Assembly: GCA_019058295.1 (NCBI GenBank)
Contig: JAHPZI010000028.1
Span: 139,715 to 203,714, forward strand
Reading direction: 5' to 3'
From: Promethearchaeota archaeon
GTDB taxonomy: Archaea; Asgardarchaeota; Lokiarchaeia; Sigyniarchaeales; SOKP01
DNA: 64,000 nucleotides
Part shown: one piece after another, positions 4,980-28,032 of the stretch
How the letters are laid out: every line of letters begins with the position of its first letter
Position numbering within the stretch: position 1 is the first letter of the stretch
The notes under the pieces: generated by a model
What the model saw: only the letters and a program-made list of their open reading frames with translations
Told to the model about the DNA's origin: nothing
Databases searched by the model: none
Program-made: the position numbers and the translations under genes

Positions 4980-5019
4980 ATATTACCTTGGGGTATATAT
5001 GATAAAGTATATATTTAAA
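4980..5019 (-). promoter_or_regulatory. Putative promoter/operator, second copy of the 40-bp motif
   Basis: ATATTACCTTGGGGTATATATGATAAAGTATATATTTAAA versus ATATTACCTTGAAGTATATATAGAAAAGTATATATTTAAA at 4045. Confidence 0.65.
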
Positions 5020-5114
5020 TATAATTATTATTTTATATAAAATAAGAATAAATATAATCAACAGGGAAAGTCATTTTTTTTTACCTTAACTCATAAATTA
5101 AGGTGATTTGCTGA

Positions 5115-5558
5115 TTGTTAGAAAAGAATGAAATTAAAGTTCAAAATCTTACAAGGTTTTATACTTTAGCGTTGTTGAAATCAAAAAAGTCGGTTACTGG
5201 CTATTATGTTCTAAAACGACTTGAAGCAGATCTAGGAAAAACAGCCAGTCCTACATATGTTTATGACTTTTTAAAAAAGCTTAAATCCGAAGGATTTATT
5301 AAAGATGTTCAGATTCCAAAGTCAAAGCGATCAGGTGGTTATCAACTTACTCCTTTAGGTTCGAAATTTGTCGATAGAATCTTTACTCGATTTGATAACT
5401 TAATAGAAGTAGCAATCCAATCAAAATTAAAAATTTGTGCAAGTTGTGGTGTCAAGCTTTATGATAATTTTTACGTTGAAAAGATTGGAGGTAAAGAGTT
5501 GATTTTCTGTTGTGAACATTGTGCAATGGCTTATAAAAATTTTAATCACAATCATTGA
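5115..5558 (+). CDS. PadR-like winged-helix regulator with C-terminal TRASH metal-binding domain (probable copper regulator)
   Basis: TGYYVLKRL...YVYDFLKKLKSEGFI...YQLTPLG; CASCG...FCCEHC. Confidence 0.8.
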   Translation: MLEKNEIKVQNLTRFYTLALLKSKKSVTGYYVLKRLEADLGKTASPTYVYDFLKKLKSEGFIKDVQIPKSKRSGGYQLTPLGSKFVDRIFTRFDNLIEVAIQSKLKICASCGVKLYDNFYVEKIGGKELIFCCEHCAMAYKNFNHNH

Positions 5559-21179: not shown

Positions 21180-22091
21180 TTAAATCCCTTCCATTCTTCT
21201 TTTTTCTTCCTCTATCCTCTCTTGTTTAAGCTCTTTTTTTTCTTTATGAGTCAAATGCTGGTCGTGTCTTTTAATATAGAGCTCTTCATATTTTTTTCTT
21301 AAATCTTCAACATCTTCAATATGTCCCAATACATCCTCTAAACCATCTTCAAAAAATCTATTTTTTTTGAATTTCTTTGCCGGAACCCCAACATAAATCC
21401 ATCCGTCTTCTAATTCTTGACCGACAATAGTAACTGAATTGGCTGCTAAAACACTATTCTTTCCTATATGAGTACCTGGCATAACAACAGCATGGGCACC
21501 TATTCTAACATTATCTTCTATTATTGTTTTTTTTATTATTAAGAGATTTCCGACAATTACGGCAGATTGAACAATGGTTCCTTGCCCTACAACCACATTT
21601 TTTCCAAATTCTATAAATTCGCAATCTACCCAGCCCTCAAATAACGAGTTTGAAAATTTTGTTTTTACTCCAAACATTTTAAAAACGATATTGTCTAAAA
21701 AAGGGAATGGAAATTTATGTGCTAGCCAAATAGGCCATTTCTTTATGGTATTTCGAAGACTCCAATAACGATAATCTCTATCTGAGGACTCTCTTAAAAA
21801 AACACCTTCCAAAGGTCTATGAATTGCATTGACTATTAAAAGCAATATCTTAGCAAATATTAATGATGTGAAAACGGCTGTAATATACATTAGAAAACAG
21901 AGTAACGGAAGAAAAATATAAAAATGAATTGGTCTTACTGGATCCCAGAGCCACCTCCAATAAAACCATAATTCTAAGAGTACGGGAATCATAGAGACCC
22001 ACATAAGAAATATATAAAAAATTAAATATCTTTTTTTTACTAAAACTGTTGGAACAAACGGGCCCACCCTCATAGAAGTTGGAACAGACAT
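21180..22091 (-). CDS. Membrane-anchored hexapeptide-repeat (LbH) acyltransferase-like protein
   Basis: Two TM helices, then IEFGKNVVVG...IIEDNVRIGAHAVVMPGTHIG...YVGVPAK. Confidence 0.85.
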   Translation of the reverse strand: MSVPTSMRVGPFVPTVLVKKRYLIFYIFLMWVSMIPVLLELWFYWRWLWDPVRPIHFYIFLPLLCFLMYITAVFTSLIFAKILLLIVNAIHRPLEGVFLRESSDRDYRYWSLRNTIKKWPIWLAHKFPFPFLDNIVFKMFGVKTKFSNSLFEGWVDCEFIEFGKNVVVGQGTIVQSAVIVGNLLIIKKTIIEDNVRIGAHAVVMPGTHIGKNSVLAANSVTIVGQELEDGWIYVGVPAKKFKKNRFFEDGLEDVLGHIEDVEDLRKKYEELYIKRHDQHLTHKEKKELKQERIEEEKRRMEGI

Positions 22092-22108
22092 TTTTTCAAA
22101 CCCCTGAA

Positions 22109-23008
22109 TTATATATTAATTTTATCCTTTTTGTCTTCTTCAATATTAATTTCATGCTCAACGCTTATTGCCTGCTCATCATCAACAATACTCTTTGTTA
22201 TATGTTTCACTCCACCTAGCTTATTTGGTTTCAGTTTTATGCAAGGAATACCAAAGTAAATCCATTCTGGTTCTAAGAATTGACTAAAAACTGTAGCAGA
22301 AAGTGCGCCTAACAATGAATCCTTTCCTATAATAGTTCCTGGTGAGACACAAGCCATTCCTCCAACAACTGTATAATCGCTAAATATTATTTCTTTGATA
22401 ATAAGGTACTTTCCAACAACCATTGAACTCATGACTACAGCACCTTGTCCAACCAAAACTTTCCGTCCAAATTTTATGAACTCCATATCACACCAAGAAT
22501 CTTGGAGATGACTCGAAAAATCCATTTTCACTCCAAACCATCGGAAAGCTAATGTATCAATCCACGGTAAAGGACAATTTCTCACAAACCACATCACTAA
22601 TTTTTTTAATTCGGTTCTCATACACCAGAACTCAAAGTCTTGGTCCCCTTTCTGAGCTAAAAATATACCTTCTTTTGGTTTATGAATAAGATTTATTAAA
22701 ACTAAAAAAAGCTTACTAAAAAATATGCATCCCAAAATAAAAATAAACAACATAGAGAATATTGCGATTGGTAAGAATAAAATAGGAAAAAGATATACTG
22801 TCCAATCATCTGTTATCAGATATAAAAGCCTGAAATATTCATATAAATATATTCCAACTAATAACCCGCTAAACCAGAAAATTGGAATATATATTATAAG
22901 AATTTTACTACTAACTCTACTAATTGCGCTACTAGTTTGGAAATCAAGCGCATATTCCTTCTTATCTGTATTTCCTTTATCTGATGTTTCAATTATCTTT
23001 TCAGTCAT
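22109..23008 (-). CDS. Membrane-anchored hexapeptide-repeat (LbH) acyltransferase-like protein, paralog 2
   Basis: Same architecture; IKFGRKVLVG...VSPGTIIG...YFGIP. Confidence 0.82.
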   Translation of the reverse strand: MTEKIIETSDKGNTDKKEYALDFQTSSAISRVSSKILIIYIPIFWFSGLLVGIYLYEYFRLLYLITDDWTVYLFPILFLPIAIFSMLFIFILGCIFFSKLFLVLINLIHKPKEGIFLAQKGDQDFEFWCMRTELKKLVMWFVRNCPLPWIDTLAFRWFGVKMDFSSHLQDSWCDMEFIKFGRKVLVGQGAVVMSSMVVGKYLIIKEIIFSDYTVVGGMACVSPGTIIGKDSLLGALSATVFSQFLEPEWIYFGIPCIKLKPNKLGGVKHITKSIVDDEQAISVEHEINIEEDKKDKINI

Positions 23009-23017
23009 TTGTTTATT

Positions 23018-23917
23018 TTATAAGTTTTCTTCTATATCATTGATTTCTTTTAAATTCTTATTTTTCTCTAAATCTTCTTCAGATATTTTCAAATAATTCA
23101 TTACTTTTTTCGTAAAAATTTTACGGGCTGGAATACCAAAATAATAATTATTACCCTTCGTAATCTGTTTTTTCGCAAAGGCACCAAGTGGTAATAAATA
23201 AGAGTTATCTTTTATTTCACAACCAGGTCCAGCTATATTAAATGCGGCACCTGTAACATTATTTCCAATCTTTATTTCATAATAAGGAATTCTTCCAAAT
23301 ATACCCTCGACTGCATGAGAACATATTGCTGAATTAACTCCTATATAACAGTTCTCCCCAACATCAATATATTTATCAGCAACAATCTCTTCTTCGATTG
23401 TTGTACCTTTCCCAATTTTACATGATCCTACAAAATTAAAGAACCAATTTGCTAACCATGGAAAAAGACCTTTAGTAAATGCATTTTTTCCATATTTTAT
23501 TATAAATGATCGGATATGGTAATAATTCAATGTATCACTAGGGACAGTCCGGAGAATAATCCCATCTCGTGTAGGACACCTCCATTCTGTAAATCTCCAG
23601 AACACTCGAGTTAATAATGCTACAAAAAATAGATGTAAAAGGTAGCAACCAATTGAAATTAACGGCATTAAAGTTAACGCTAATAGGGGTTTAAGGTCTG
23701 TAAAAAGAGAGAAAAAATCATTGATATCCAAAAAGAAAGGTTTAAAAACTAAAAAAAAATATAACATGAAAACAATTCCGGGAAGGAAGTAAGATCCTAA
23801 ATAAATAATAGCAAAAAAAGTTAAATAGAAGTGATATTGTAGGTTAATCTCTTGTTCTTTTTCGCCTTTTTTTTCTTCAGTATTATTAATCTTTGGCTCT
23901 TCTTTCATATTAGCCAT
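23018..23917 (-). CDS. Membrane-anchored hexapeptide-repeat (LbH) acyltransferase-like protein, paralog 3
   Basis: Same architecture; KIGKGTTI...IDVGENCYIG...SHAVE...YFGIPAR. Confidence 0.82.
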   Translation of the reverse strand: MANMKEEPKINNTEEKKGEKEQEINLQYHFYLTFFAIIYLGSYFLPGIVFMLYFFLVFKPFFLDINDFFSLFTDLKPLLALTLMPLISIGCYLLHLFFVALLTRVFWRFTEWRCPTRDGIILRTVPSDTLNYYHIRSFIIKYGKNAFTKGLFPWLANWFFNFVGSCKIGKGTTIEEEIVADKYIDVGENCYIGVNSAICSHAVEGIFGRIPYYEIKIGNNVTGAAFNIAGPGCEIKDNSYLLPLGAFAKKQITKGNNYYFGIPARKIFTKKVMNYLKISEEDLEKNKNLKEINDIEENL

Positions 23918-24037: not shown

Positions 24038-24204
24038 TTATCTATTAGAATCCATATACCCTTTTATATATTTATAAATTTCTTCAGCAGGTTGAAATAC
24101 TCCAAAATGCCCTTCGCATAAAATATCTGCTTTTACATCAAGCAGTTTTTGCATTGATTTTTGATAATCGCCTTTATTAGAACCAAAACTTTTCATAAAT
24201 GGAC
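24038..24204 (-). pseudogene. Displaced 3' fragment of the MBL-fold hydrolase gene at 25731-26405
   Basis: 35 of 46 aligned residues are identical to that protein's C-terminus; similarity starts abruptly at GTCC (24204). Confidence 0.85.
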
Positions 24205-25906
24205 AATAGATAGGTTTTATTCTATAAAGAAAATAATATATTAAAGGAATTATTTTTATCAAATATTTTCATTTTTTGGCCCATATACTTTTCTTAATAA
24301 ATTAAAGATCTCATATTTAGTATTAAGTTTTTTAATCGTATTCTTAACAAGTGGATCAGTTATAAATAAATTTTTAAAAAAAATTGTTGCATGTTTTTCA
24401 AAACCTTTTAACCCAAACTCCTTAGAATATATTGTATACAGAGAAACTCCATTTCTAAGAAGATCTTTGACTCTTTTATAACGATTCTCTTTTATTAAGA
24501 ATGCCTCTGGTTTTAACTTAATATTCCATTTTGATAGATAATTATTTAAAGTTCCTTTAGCAATTGAAAATTTGAAAATTTTGAAATGTAGTTTAATTAA
24601 ATCCTCTATTCTCGTATTTGGATTTTGGAGAATAATATTTTTCAATTGAAGTTTTGTCCACATCATCTTACGTCTCTTTAATCCTGCCCATGAAGAAGAT
24701 TTATATCTCAATCTTTTTCTCTCTAGACTATTTTCATAATTATCAAGTAATTTATTAAACAATTCACCGCCTAATGTGAGATAATATCCAATTAATTTAT
24801 TATTTGAAAAATGAAGTTTGGGAACTTTTTTTAATTCGAATTCATAAATAATATCTTTTAAAAATCTTTTACTTTTAATTGTTCCAATTCTAGGTGCTCC
24901 CCCTGAATGAGTTCCATCTCCATCAAAAAATCCAAGCAAACAACTCATAGACAAATTAGTATTATTAAATCTCGGAAAGAGAATCAAATTTGACTTTTTT
25001 CCTATAGGGAATCCATGAGTATATAAATATTTTCCAAATAAATTACCAGAAATCCTAAACGAGAATGTATATGAATAATTTAAACTAAATTCATTAGGAG
25101 GTTTTCTTGTAAAATCAACATTTCTTGGAGAAAGCCCAATTGCTTGAATAAATCGTTTAATTAAAATTCCATCTTTAACTCCAATTTCTACTGACAATTC
25201 ATACTTCCTACGGTGCATTCTAAGATGTCCTTCTGCTAATAGCCAACCATACCAATATGCCTTCTCTTTAATATCAATATTTTGAAAATAATTATCAATT
25301 AAATTAGGATTTTTTTGATTATATTGACCAGAATGGAAATTATGATATTTTACAAAATATGTATTTAATTTATCAAAATTTTTCTTTAATTTTAGTTTAA
25401 GCGCTCTTGTATAAGAATTTAAAGTTTGTGTAGAAAGAAAATAATCAGGATTTCTTTTCGATTTAAGTATTAAATCATTGATATACCATTTACTTTTTTT
25501 CATTAAATAATTAGTTGATAAAAAATGATAATTTATTATTTTATTATCTAAGGAATTAATTACATTTTTAATATCCCAAAAGAATTCACGAATAGAATAA
25601 ATAGGATTCACATCAGCAATATAATGTAGTTAAATTAGTCAAGTTTATTCAAGATATTCTCTCTTGAAAATAATTTAGAGATACTTAATTTATTAATTTG
25701 TTTTAATTATGTTATAATCATAAAATAATTTCAGCTTTTAGGTTGATTTAATTTTTTATGTTGCATTATATATTTCTTTACTTGCTCAGCAGGTTGAAAG
25801 ATGCCAAAATGTCCTTCACACAGAATATCTGCGTTTAGATCTAGTATTTTTTGCATTGAATTCTGATAATCATATAAATTTGAACTAAAACTTTTCATAA
25901 AAGGAC
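24205..25906 (-). mobile_element. Putative intron-less homing element: replacement 3' end of host gene plus LAGLIDADG endonuclease
   Basis: Bounded by the two copies of the MBL 3' end; contains no transposase or integrase. Confidence 0.65.
24259..25611 (-). CDS. Free-standing double-motif LAGLIDADG homing endonuclease with basic C-terminal extension
   Basis: KAYWYGWLLAEGHL and SCLLGFFDGDGT motifs; NYFQNIDIKEKAY preceding motif 1; very AT-rich. Confidence 0.85.
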   Translation of the reverse strand: MNPIYSIREFFWDIKNVINSLDNKIINYHFLSTNYLMKKSKWYINDLILKSKRNPDYFLSTQTLNSYTRALKLKLKKNFDKLNTYFVKYHNFHSGQYNQKNPNLIDNYFQNIDIKEKAYWYGWLLAEGHLRMHRRKYELSVEIGVKDGILIKRFIQAIGLSPRNVDFTRKPPNEFSLNYSYTFSFRISGNLFGKYLYTHGFPIGKKSNLILFPRFNNTNLSMSCLLGFFDGDGTHSGGAPRIGTIKSKRFLKDIIYEFELKKVPKLHFSNNKLIGYYLTLGGELFNKLLDNYENSLERKRLRYKSSSWAGLKRRKMMWTKLQLKNIILQNPNTRIEDLIKLHFKIFKFSIAKGTLNNYLSKWNIKLKPEAFLIKENRYKRVKDLLRNGVSLYTIYSKEFGLKGFEKHATIFFKNLFITDPLVKNTIKKLNTKYEIFNLLRKVYGPKNENI

Positions 25907-26405
25907 CGTGAAGATCTTGGGCAAAAAGAATTTTAGTATCCTCAATTTCTACCAACACAGAAATGGATCCAGGAGTGTGGCCGGGGGTATGAATACATTG
26001 AAATTCATAATCACCCAATTTTAAGATCTCAATATCTTTAGTAAATCTCTGGTGTAATTTTATTGGTTTATAATCAACACCATACCAAGATGCAGCAGTT
26101 TTACGATCATATCCTTTTTGTTCAATAGCATCAGCATCTAAATCGTGAGCGTAAAATTTCATATTCTCATTAAGTGAAACTTTTAATTCATAGCAGATAG
26201 CAATATGATCTATATGGCAATGTGTTAGAATGCAATGTTTTATGTTTTTTGGACTTAATCCAAAACTATTGATATTTTTTACTATTAAATAAATATTCAT
26301 CCCAGAATCAATTAAAACAAGACCATCATCACTATTTGTATCCACTAAATATACAGAACAACCAGAATCTCCTAAATGGTACACATTTTTAAATATTTTT
26401 TTCAT
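25731..26405 (-). CDS. MBL-fold metallo-hydrolase (glyoxalase II-like)
   Basis: LIDSG, THCHIDH, HTPGHTPGS, QDLHGP, CEGH. Confidence 0.92.
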   Translation of the reverse strand: MKKIFKNVYHLGDSGCSVYLVDTNSDDGLVLIDSGMNIYLIVKNINSFGLSPKNIKHCILTHCHIDHIAICYELKVSLNENMKFYAHDLDADAIEQKGYDRKTAASWYGVDYKPIKLHQRFTKDIEILKLGDYEFQCIHTPGHTPGSISVLVEIEDTKILFAQDLHGPFMKSFSSNLYDYQNSMQKILDLNADILCEGHFGIFQPAEQVKKYIMQHKKLNQPKS

Positions 26406-26415
26406 TTCGATTAAA

Positions 26416-28032
26416 TTAAAGGATTTTTTCTCTTAAAGTTTTTACATCTATATTTTTTAACTTTTTATAGAATCGGATGAAAATTAAATAAACTCCGAAA
26501 GACCAAATAATCCAAGAAAAAACCTGCCCCCTATCAAGATTTAAGAGATAATTGATAAAATTGTCAGCTTTACCTAAACCAAAAAAGTCCAAAACATCAT
26601 GAAATGGGTATTGAACCTCTATTCTTCTATGATTATCATTCATCGCTACTACTTCATGGTCGTTTCTCCTCAAATTTTTAAAGATATTATCAACTGATTT
26701 ATCCTTAGGATTTTTCAATCGGAGTTTAATAAATGTGTCTAATTCATTGCTTTTATGTTCATCGGTACCGGCAATGCATGTTAAATTGTTATCTAAGCAA
26801 AATTCTCTTATTTTTTTGTCTTTAGGATTTCCTCCATTTACGATTTCGAATCCATCTACACCCCAATCCATTAACTGTTCAAGAGTATAAGGAACACCTC
26901 TTCCATTTTCTTTTTCATTTTTTTCCGCGTTATAGTGGTTTACAAAGATATAACCTCCTTCTCGTTTAACATGTTTTATAGTGTCTTCGGCGTTCATTGA
27001 TTTGAACGGGCATGTTGGTGCATCTGATTCTTTAGGAACAACTGTATGATCAAGACCGAAAATGTTCATGTGTATATCATTGTCATGATCAGTCCACTCT
27101 TCTGCAATAATAACGGTAAAATCTAAATCGTATTCTTTAACAAATTTTCTTGCTACCTTTGCACCTCTTTGATTATCATGATCCGAAAAGGCAGCTCCCG
27201 AAATCCCTTGTTCTATATACCACATTACTCTTTCTTCGGGTGTCAAATATCCATCAGAATATATTGTGTGCACATGAAAATCAAAAAGAAATTCATCATG
27301 ATCGAGGTCAGTTTCGATCTCTTGAGTGGGCCACTTAAATGATACTAAAATCACGCTCAGTCCAAGCATTAAAAAGATAAACCCGGCACAATATGCCAAA
27401 TGCTTTTTGAATTCGTTAGCGTTGTGATTTTTTTTTTCTTTTTTCTTGAATTTTTCTGAATAATTAAATTTATATTCAGGATTCCGGTATTTTGCCAGAA
27501 TATATCCTCCTTTAAGAGCAACCAGAGTCAATCCAATAGGGACGAAAAGTTGTACTAAAAACATAAAATAAAGGTTAACAAAGTAGAACCCAATAAAAAT
27601 ATAAGCGAACAATAAAAACAACATACAACAGGCCACCCCTCCTCCAATTATAATACCTATAAATCTTAAAAAATCTCTGAGAGGATAAATTAACAACTGT
27701 GCTTTTTCCGAAGGCTCAAACCCTCGCTTTTTTTTAACATAAAAGCGGTATATAACCTGTATAATGATATAAGATATTATAAATCCAGAAATCCAATTAA
27801 AATCGACTGAAAATACAAAAGTAATTCCTATAATTGGTTCAAAAAAATATCTTAAAAGCGGGATTTGAGAATCATATTTCGGGGAAACATTCTTTCCATC
27901 AATCAAGTCATAAAAAGTAACTTTACGCTGAGCAAATATAGCTAATATTATCAGACAGATAATCCAAACTAAAAAAACCCTCTGAACAAACTTTAAAAAT
28001 TTAGATTTGTTTTGATAGTTTGTATTTTTCAT
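26416..28032 (-). CDS. Membrane protein with PHP phosphoesterase domain
   Basis: Multiple TM helices; DFHVHTIYSDG, SDHD, VNH, GTDEH. Confidence 0.82.
   Translation of the reverse strand: MKNTNYQNKSKFLKFVQRVFLVWIICLIILAIFAQRKVTFYDLIDGKNVSPKYDSQIPLLRYFFEPIIGITFVFSVDFNWISGFIISYIIIQVIYRFYVKKKRGFEPSEKAQLLIYPLRDFLRFIGIIIGGGVACCMLFLLFAYIFIGFYFVNLYFMFLVQLFVPIGLTLVALKGGYILAKYRNPEYKFNYSEKFKKKEKKNHNANEFKKHLAYCAGFIFLMLGLSVILVSFKWPTQEIETDLDHDEFLFDFHVHTIYSDGYLTPEERVMWYIEQGISGAAFSDHDNQRGAKVARKFVKEYDLDFTVIIAEEWTDHDNDIHMNIFGLDHTVVPKESDAPTCPFKSMNAEDTIKHVKREGGYIFVNHYNAEKNEKENGRGVPYTLEQLMDWGVDGFEIVNGGNPKDKKIREFCLDNNLTCIAGTDEHKSNELDTFIKLRLKNPKDKSVDNIFKNLRRNDHEVVAMNDNHRRIEVQYPFHDVLDFFGLGKADNFINYLLNLDRGQVFSWIIWSFGVYLIFIRFYKKLKNIDVKTLREKIL

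Follow-up and report, generated by a model that had tools for sequence, protein, structure and literature searches.

Homing elements that are neither introns nor inteins are known from yeasts and fungal mitochondria. The closest described system is that of the WHO elements of Torulaspora and Lachancea yeasts, which home into FBA1 (Coughlan et al. 2020, PMC7282813). Each consists of an endonuclease gene and a replacement 3' end: a free-standing LAGLIDADG gene stands downstream of the intact host gene and before a duplicated 3' fragment, the old end, which has been pushed out and acts as a second homology arm. WHO fragments begin at the cut (PMC7282813), trees of the 5' and 3' parts of the host gene are discordant, elements occur in either orientation, and old tails can be stacked. 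Comparable gene hybrids, the mORFs, are found in fungal mitochondria, in atp6 of Allomyces macrogynus and in atp6, atp9, cox2, and nad3 of Glomus (PMC3630166). There, a foreign C-terminal part of horizontal origin is in frame with the native gene, an endonuclease ORF is present, and the displaced native C-terminus matches element-free relatives. In T-even and ICP1 phages, homing endonucleases also occur free-standing, most of them being of the GIY-YIG or HNH type. They likewise involve no intron or intein and spread by break repair with co-converted flanking alleles (PMC10448857); a text search of that paper gave no mention of a duplicated host gene end. Archaea have enzymes of the LAGLIDADG fold in I-DmoI, I-Tsp061I, and PI-PfuI, but their targets are interrupted by the spliced intron or intein in which these enzymes reside.

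In the locus described here, the endonuclease gene lies outside an uninterrupted gene of an archaeal chromosome. The window (the whole stretch of DNA analysed) is 64,000 nt from Promethearchaeota archaeon GCA_019058295.1, contig JAHPZI010000028.1, 139,715-203,714 of the forward strand. All ORFs of the layout originally read from the sequence were located on the minus strand, from the hydrolase gene through the LAGLIDADG gene to an orphan tail of 54 codons (Table 1). The endonuclease gene has its own start 119 nt after the hydrolase stop, whereas some mORFs are in phase with the host gene, and the spacer between the two genes is absent from empty alleles. The orphan consists of its 54 codons (24038-24202) and two bases of a Gly codon (24203-24204). 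Described earlier as start-less, it does lack a native start, but an in-frame TTG exists at 24262 (L062 lacks it), and gene callers use an internal ATG at 24196 (P0193, 52 aa). The three LbH genes downstream are tandem paralogues that are conserved in the genus.

Table 1. Features of the locus, in window positions (position 1 is the first base of the window).
Feature	Position	Strand	Evidence
Host gene: MBL-fold metallo-hydrolase, 224 aa, chimeric (native head, foreign tail)	25731..26405	-	ORF list; PF00753
Native 5' part of host gene	25942..26405	-	11 mismatches/464 nt vs L313; groups with L313/L002/L003 at 100/98
Probable co-conversion tract upstream of junction	25907..25941	-	9 mismatches/35 nt vs L313; boundary fuzzy
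Foreign replacement 3' end carried by element, 57 codons + stop	25731..25906	-	dS; AU test; tree
AT-rich element spacer; presumed endonuclease promoter region	25612..25730	-	Near-identical in L312, L062, L374
Free-standing two-motif LAGLIDADG endonuclease gene, 450 aa, GTG start, helical N-/C-terminal extensions	24259..25611	-	
First LAGLIDADG motif, codons 120-129, acidic residue E127	25225..25254	-	Presumed catalytic role, from family
Second LAGLIDADG motif, codons 225-234, acidic residue D232	24910..24939	-	Presumed catalytic role, from family
Element 3' spacer up to right junction	24205..24258	-	Junction identical in L062 and L374
Stranded native 3' end of host gene, 54 codons, open; right homology arm	24038..24204	-	162/167 nt vs L313
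Upstream neighbour outside element: membrane PHP-domain gene	26416..28032	-	Syntenic in L002, L003
Downstream neighbours outside element: three membrane LbH (hexapeptide) genes	21180..23917	-	Directly after hydrolase in empty alleles

The two copies of the hydrolase tail form a 141-nt direct repeat, 113/141 (80 per cent) identical and 1702 nt apart. At the protein level they agree at 35/46 positions (76.1 per cent), reproducing the value given for them before. Similarity sets in abruptly at 25906/24204, inside the Gly codon of the QDLHG-P motif, just where it had been placed; upstream of this point only 15/60 bases match. The spacing fits the unit of about 1.7 kb (24205-25906) put forward in the original prediction, but foreign sequence begins some 35 nt further upstream, at about 25941. 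The insert gave no match to an intein, transposase, or integrase family, also as predicted. It contains no replication gene, and its coding strand has no further ORF of at least 60 aa. The locus region had no Rfam or ARAGORN match, the inverted repeats around the insert are AT-rich chance matches only, and there are no terminal repeats and no target duplication apart from the gene tail. A promoter scan of the locus stayed at chance level, with a model of bacterial promoters applied to an archaeal host. An assembly artefact is ruled out because the insert and its right junction recur in two independent sequencing runs (L374, 99.7 per cent; L062, 94.8 per cent).

We next compared the locus with its relatives, which lie on Promethearchaeota chromosomal contigs and carry the target as an archaeal MBL-fold gene. 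By its homologues, the source genome belongs to Promethearchaeota. Empty alleles of the expected form were found. The same-genus genomes L002 and L003 have the PHP gene, hydrolase, and LbH genes with no insert, and in both of these and in L313, the nearest empty allele, a single hydrolase with an orphan-type tail stands directly before the LbH genes. The orphan matches L313 at 162/167 nt and L002 at 160/167, and the 3165 nt of flank beyond it are 97.8 per cent identical to L313 without a gap. The head of the host gene is 97-98 per cent identical to empty alleles, and the attached tail has 26 mismatches to L313 in 141 nt. Measured against L313, dS is 0.11 in the orphan and 0.15 in the head, and it rises to 0.68 in the attached tail. 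Separate trees of head and tails, proposed earlier as a check, are discordant: head and orphan group with L313, L002, and L003 (100/98 and 100/99), and the attached tail groups with the tails of L062 and L312. The AU test rejected a placement of the attached tail within the L313/L002/L003 group (P = 1.2e-5). Identity, dS, and trees thus all show that the inherited end of the hydrolase is the orphan and not the attached tail, the reverse of which would have counted against the original prediction. The orphan's lack of stops had been taken as a sign of a recent event; it says little alone because only five bases differ from L313.

We did not find a donor genome for the attached tail. The best non-element tails are 75 per cent identical to it, and contigs P0003, P0004, P0005, and P0006 have no hydrolase tail. 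Occupied alleles are rare: two adjacent tails were seen only in the source genome among the matches listed from 147 class genomes, which leave aside 47 weak matches. A 68-nt gap behind the orphan relative to L002 and L003 was considered as a product of the element and rejected, since it is also present in the empty allele L313 and is a strain difference.

A Pfam scan of the 450-aa endonuclease alone gave no match, and for this reason its assignment to LAGLIDADG rests on homologues and fold. PF14528 (LAGLIDADG_3) was found in 34 of the 44 aligned members of its family, and the protein itself matches phrog_4645. The AlphaFold2 model (pLDDT 90) has a LAGLIDADG fold with two motif helices, flanked by all-helical N- and C-terminal parts. 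All 50 Foldseek matches listed were LAGLIDADG proteins, the best being bI3 maturase, I-AniI, I-SceI, and I-Tsp061I (E down to 9e-6). Both E127 and D232 are present in an intact frame and unchanged in L062, and D232 is nearly invariant in the family alignment. From the fold and the motif acids we predict a two-motif LAGLIDADG homing endonuclease with putative cleavage activity. Its dN/dS against L062 is 0.54, which amounts to weak constraint. No Hint, intein, or zinc-finger family was found among the 44 members. WHO endonucleases, in contrast, have an Intein-like (Hint) region and a Cys-X-X-Cys zinc finger and are related to HO and VDE; the archaeal enzyme is a PF14528-type core with helical extensions and has distant relatives in phages. 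Several of these phage homologues (L236, L265, L266, L291-L293, L304) are flanked by repeats that, by eye, resemble group I intron cores. Five other loci (L038, L045, L054, L059, L041) encode long N-terminal extensions (600-860 aa) without an intein match.

The insertion has spread recently and leaves traces beyond its own ends. Relative to L313, the 9 mismatches in the 35 nt upstream of the junction stand against 11 in the preceding 464 (Fisher P = 1.4e-6). This tract is partly shared with L003 and includes a Gly-to-Ala change in the GQD motif, where 145 of 149 homologues have GQ. In a second occupied allele, L312, the hydrolase head is about 80 per cent identical to that of the window and the upstream neighbour is different. 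Identity to the window element nevertheless reaches about 97 per cent over the stretch between a point about 80 nt inside the tail and the beginning of the endonuclease gene. The first 80 nt of its attached tail differ from the window's, so an extra recombination event is needed. L312 has its own empty allele in L375: 237/237 flank bases and the first 428 bases of the gene are identical; the next 232 nt contain 50 mismatches, which set in 67 nt before the junction and run into element sequence. This is the pattern that recent repair with co-conversion would be expected to leave. In another genus-level lineage, L061 has a 51 per cent identical endonuclease behind the same hydrolase gene, with a foreign tail attached. 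Its head is at most 63 per cent identical to g1-type heads and 89-91 per cent to g8 genomes, and its orphan is 94 per cent identical to empty tails of its own lineage; the AU test for its attached tail was not significant (P = 0.39).

We therefore favour, at a probability of roughly 0.88, a homing element that is free-standing and spreads by swapping gene tails; it measures about 1.7 kb (24205-25906), with the converted sequence extending to about 25941. From established LAGLIDADG homing and the WHO model (PMC7282813) we infer its cleavage and resistance steps. The enzyme would cut the empty allele at or near the QD(I/L)HG-P motif, and the break would be repaired from an occupied allele, its left end pairing with the donor's 5' gene part and its right end with the donor's stranded tail. 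The recipient would keep an intact gene with the donor's tail and gain the endonuclease gene, and its own tail would become the new orphan. Re-cutting would be prevented by differences at the junction or, in the orphan, by loss of the left half of the site. Neither RNA nor protein splicing would be required.

The position of the cut is the point at which another homing scheme could apply. T4 free-standing endonucleases cut in a neighbouring gene, and here too the cut might lie deeper in the tail or in a neighbouring gene, with resistance outside the QDLHG-P motif. Such a site would suit the close likeness of occupied and empty alleles right at the junction, and the sequence common to three near-identical elements begins only about 80 nt into the tail. 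We nevertheless think it unlikely. The orphan matches an empty-allele tail almost completely (162/167), so that a site within it would leave it open to cutting, and the WHO precedent places the cut where the fragments begin (PMC7282813). Recipient-type bases survive as far as about -35 on one side and reappear within the first 70 nt of the orphan on the other, lineage-specific ones being retained 30-70 nt into it; this brackets the break around the junction. The junction is fixed in QD(I/L)HG-P, with the orphan starting at the same base in the window, L062, and L374, and conversion tracts extend 35-67 nt upstream of that base. The common starting base and the conversion tracts weigh against a relic of Campbell-type integration or excision, in which a circular DNA with a hydrolase piece and the endonuclease entered by a single crossover, the endonuclease being a passenger or inactive. 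A single crossover in a homologous segment does give a chimeric gene and a stranded end, cargo lies between endonuclease and orphan at L110, L114, L124, L138, and L169, and no targeted cutting of the kind that we infer for homing is called for. Even so, the insert has no integrase or replication gene, and the endonuclease clades track their target genes over long branches, unlike a passenger; this origin strikes us as very improbable.

Tandem duplication of the hydrolase with later 5' deletion of one copy, the endonuclease being incidental, has a parallel in L157, where two full paralogues surround the endonuclease gene. Two such paralogues had been named in advance as grounds for giving up the homing reading, but the closest relatives carry one hydrolase, before the LbH genes and in the same neighbourhood. 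The attached tail is not a recent local duplicate because its dS from the native tail is 0.68, against 0.15 for the head, and in L312 the same tail is joined to an unrelated head. This history is refuted by two occupied/empty pairs, window-L313 and L312-L375, and we give it practically no credence.

Resistance is the weakest step of the proposed homing cycle. Near the junction, several bases set occupied alleles apart from the empty alleles closest to them, yet no single change there is common to all occupied alleles. The GQD motif is changed in L061 and in the window, whereas rare bases are absent from L312 within 24 nt of the junction. The attached tail of L062 carries an additional codon and several changes directly behind the junction (L062:60-95), a candidate alternative resistance change. 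The reconstructed empty site that the original prediction offered as a cleavage substrate turned out to be a poor choice: its left half is co-converted, and a single base within 13 nt of the junction separates it from the occupied site, a base that occurs in 46 per cent of empty alleles. Real empty alleles are therefore needed for an assay.

A screen of other Asgard LAGLIDADG genes for flanking duplicates of gene tails, as had been suggested, was positive. We surveyed 103 non-redundant, high-scoring family loci with enough flank, using 591 genes of the source genome as controls and leaving duplicates beside the distant phage homologues out of the count. A same-strand short duplicate on both sides of the gene was found at 17/103 family loci and 15/591 controls (P = 2e-7). 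Judged by eye, 14 of the 17 family duplicates are ends of protein genes, and the control duplicates are non-coding-looking or full paralogues. The other 86 loci have no duplicate within 1 kb, but many adjoin their clade's target gene, some with orphans further off.

The endonuclease tree has one target per clade: the hydrolase, an LsrF-type aldolase, an SNF2 helicase, an acetoacetate-type CoA ligase, a radical-SAM-like gene, and an alpha-mannosidase-like gene, with all names except that of the hydrolase resting on recognised motifs and not on family scans. The three hydrolase-linked endonucleases form one clade (SH-aLRT 100). Unlabelled clade members are mostly beside the same target gene, some with two orphans or cargo; kin share labels, so this clustering is not a count of independent events. 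At the aldolase locus of genome G007, the orphan matches the empty allele of the source genome at 111/116 positions and the attached tail does so at 84/116, an independent replicate of a native orphan with a foreign tail.

Other arrangements were also seen. The source genome has a second family member, L057 (G000:C10:12031-15885), between a stranded 5' fragment and a full DUF1848-like copy (48 per cent identical), a possible head replacement. At L124, L138, L110, L169, L109, and L173, the orphan tails are stacked or distant and are separated from the endonuclease by other genes, a layout also seen in WHO clusters. At L180, L134, and L135 the endonuclease genes are flanked by duplicated tRNA-like sequences, although ARAGORN did not call the duplicates. 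L073, on a contig binned as an actinobacterium, has a family member and target near-identical to those of Promethearchaeia L075 and L149 and is probably a binning error.

Two sister clades have a short insert at the junction, where the window hydrolase has no such insert. In the aldolase clade, a 32-nt hairpin lies exactly at the orphan start in 4/4 endonuclease-bearing alleles, and it is found in 3/27 alleles without an adjacent endonuclease (L316, L323, L334). At L114:3500-3545, L128:3260-3300, L131:3325-3365, and L120, the aldolase gene has this 32-nt insert at the element junction in bulge-helix-bulge-like form with a stop. The stems show compensatory changes, and the conserved aldolase frame is restored if each 3-nt bulge is cut behind its second base. 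The mannosidase clade combines a 30-nt hairpin insert at the junction with a replaced 5' end, and in L139 and L141 the endonuclease is on the strand opposite the alpha-mannosidase-like gene. In both, a stranded native mannosidase-like head ends at the codon of the 30-nt insert (L139:3490-3570 and 5002-5067; L141:3720-3800 and 5160-5216). On sequence grounds, the 30-32 nt inserts of the two clades appear to be tRNA-type mini-introns that would be spliced. Their position recalls collaborative homing in phages. Further inserts of about 30 nt break CoA-ligase and aldolase genes away from the junction (L112:2455-2459, L176:3190-3194, L128:2640-2690) and are probably mini-introns as well.

The element works like the WHO elements and the fungal mORF hybrids but belongs to neither family. 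It shares with WHO elements the make-up of endonuclease gene plus replacement 3' end, the displaced end as a presumed second homology arm, discordant 5' and 3' trees (here the AU test and the L312/L375 pair), either orientation, and stacks of old tails (here in the CoA-ligase clade, at L124 and L138). WHO elements have FBA1 of budding yeasts as their target, whereas the archaeal family has many targets, also replaces 5' ends (mannosidase, DUF1848-like), and has a cleavage activity that is so far predicted. The mORF hybrids are organellar and eukaryotic. Fungal mitochondrial elements with a substitute gene end, the precedent named in the original prediction, do exist (PMC3630166), but the closest one, in yeasts, had been missed. 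Its claim of novelty for archaeal chromosomes stood: we found no archaeal precedent for a gene-tail-replacing homing element in the literature searched, which is thin on subscription papers.

With this finding, the 'third class' of homing elements (those that are not introns or inteins), which the literature searched places in yeasts and fungal mitochondria, extends to archaeal chromosomes, with an unrelated endonuclease architecture there. Occupied/empty pairs are ready substrates, and each clade would be a natural meganuclease with a predictable target. Because homing needs two alleles per cell, a near-identical element on host alleles that are about 80 per cent identical points to recent DNA exchange and homologous repair between distinct Lokiarchaeal lineages. 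Chimeric gene ends in these archaea can mislead single-gene trees. More tentatively, and at odds that we put slightly short of even, the clade-per-target family as a whole may be an engine of gene-end exchange between Asgard genera, in which the element protects itself either by a re-spelled tail or by a bulge-helix-bulge mini-intron of 30-32 nt in the cut site. If so, the family would actively bring introns into archaeal protein-coding genes, where they would outlast the loss of the endonuclease.
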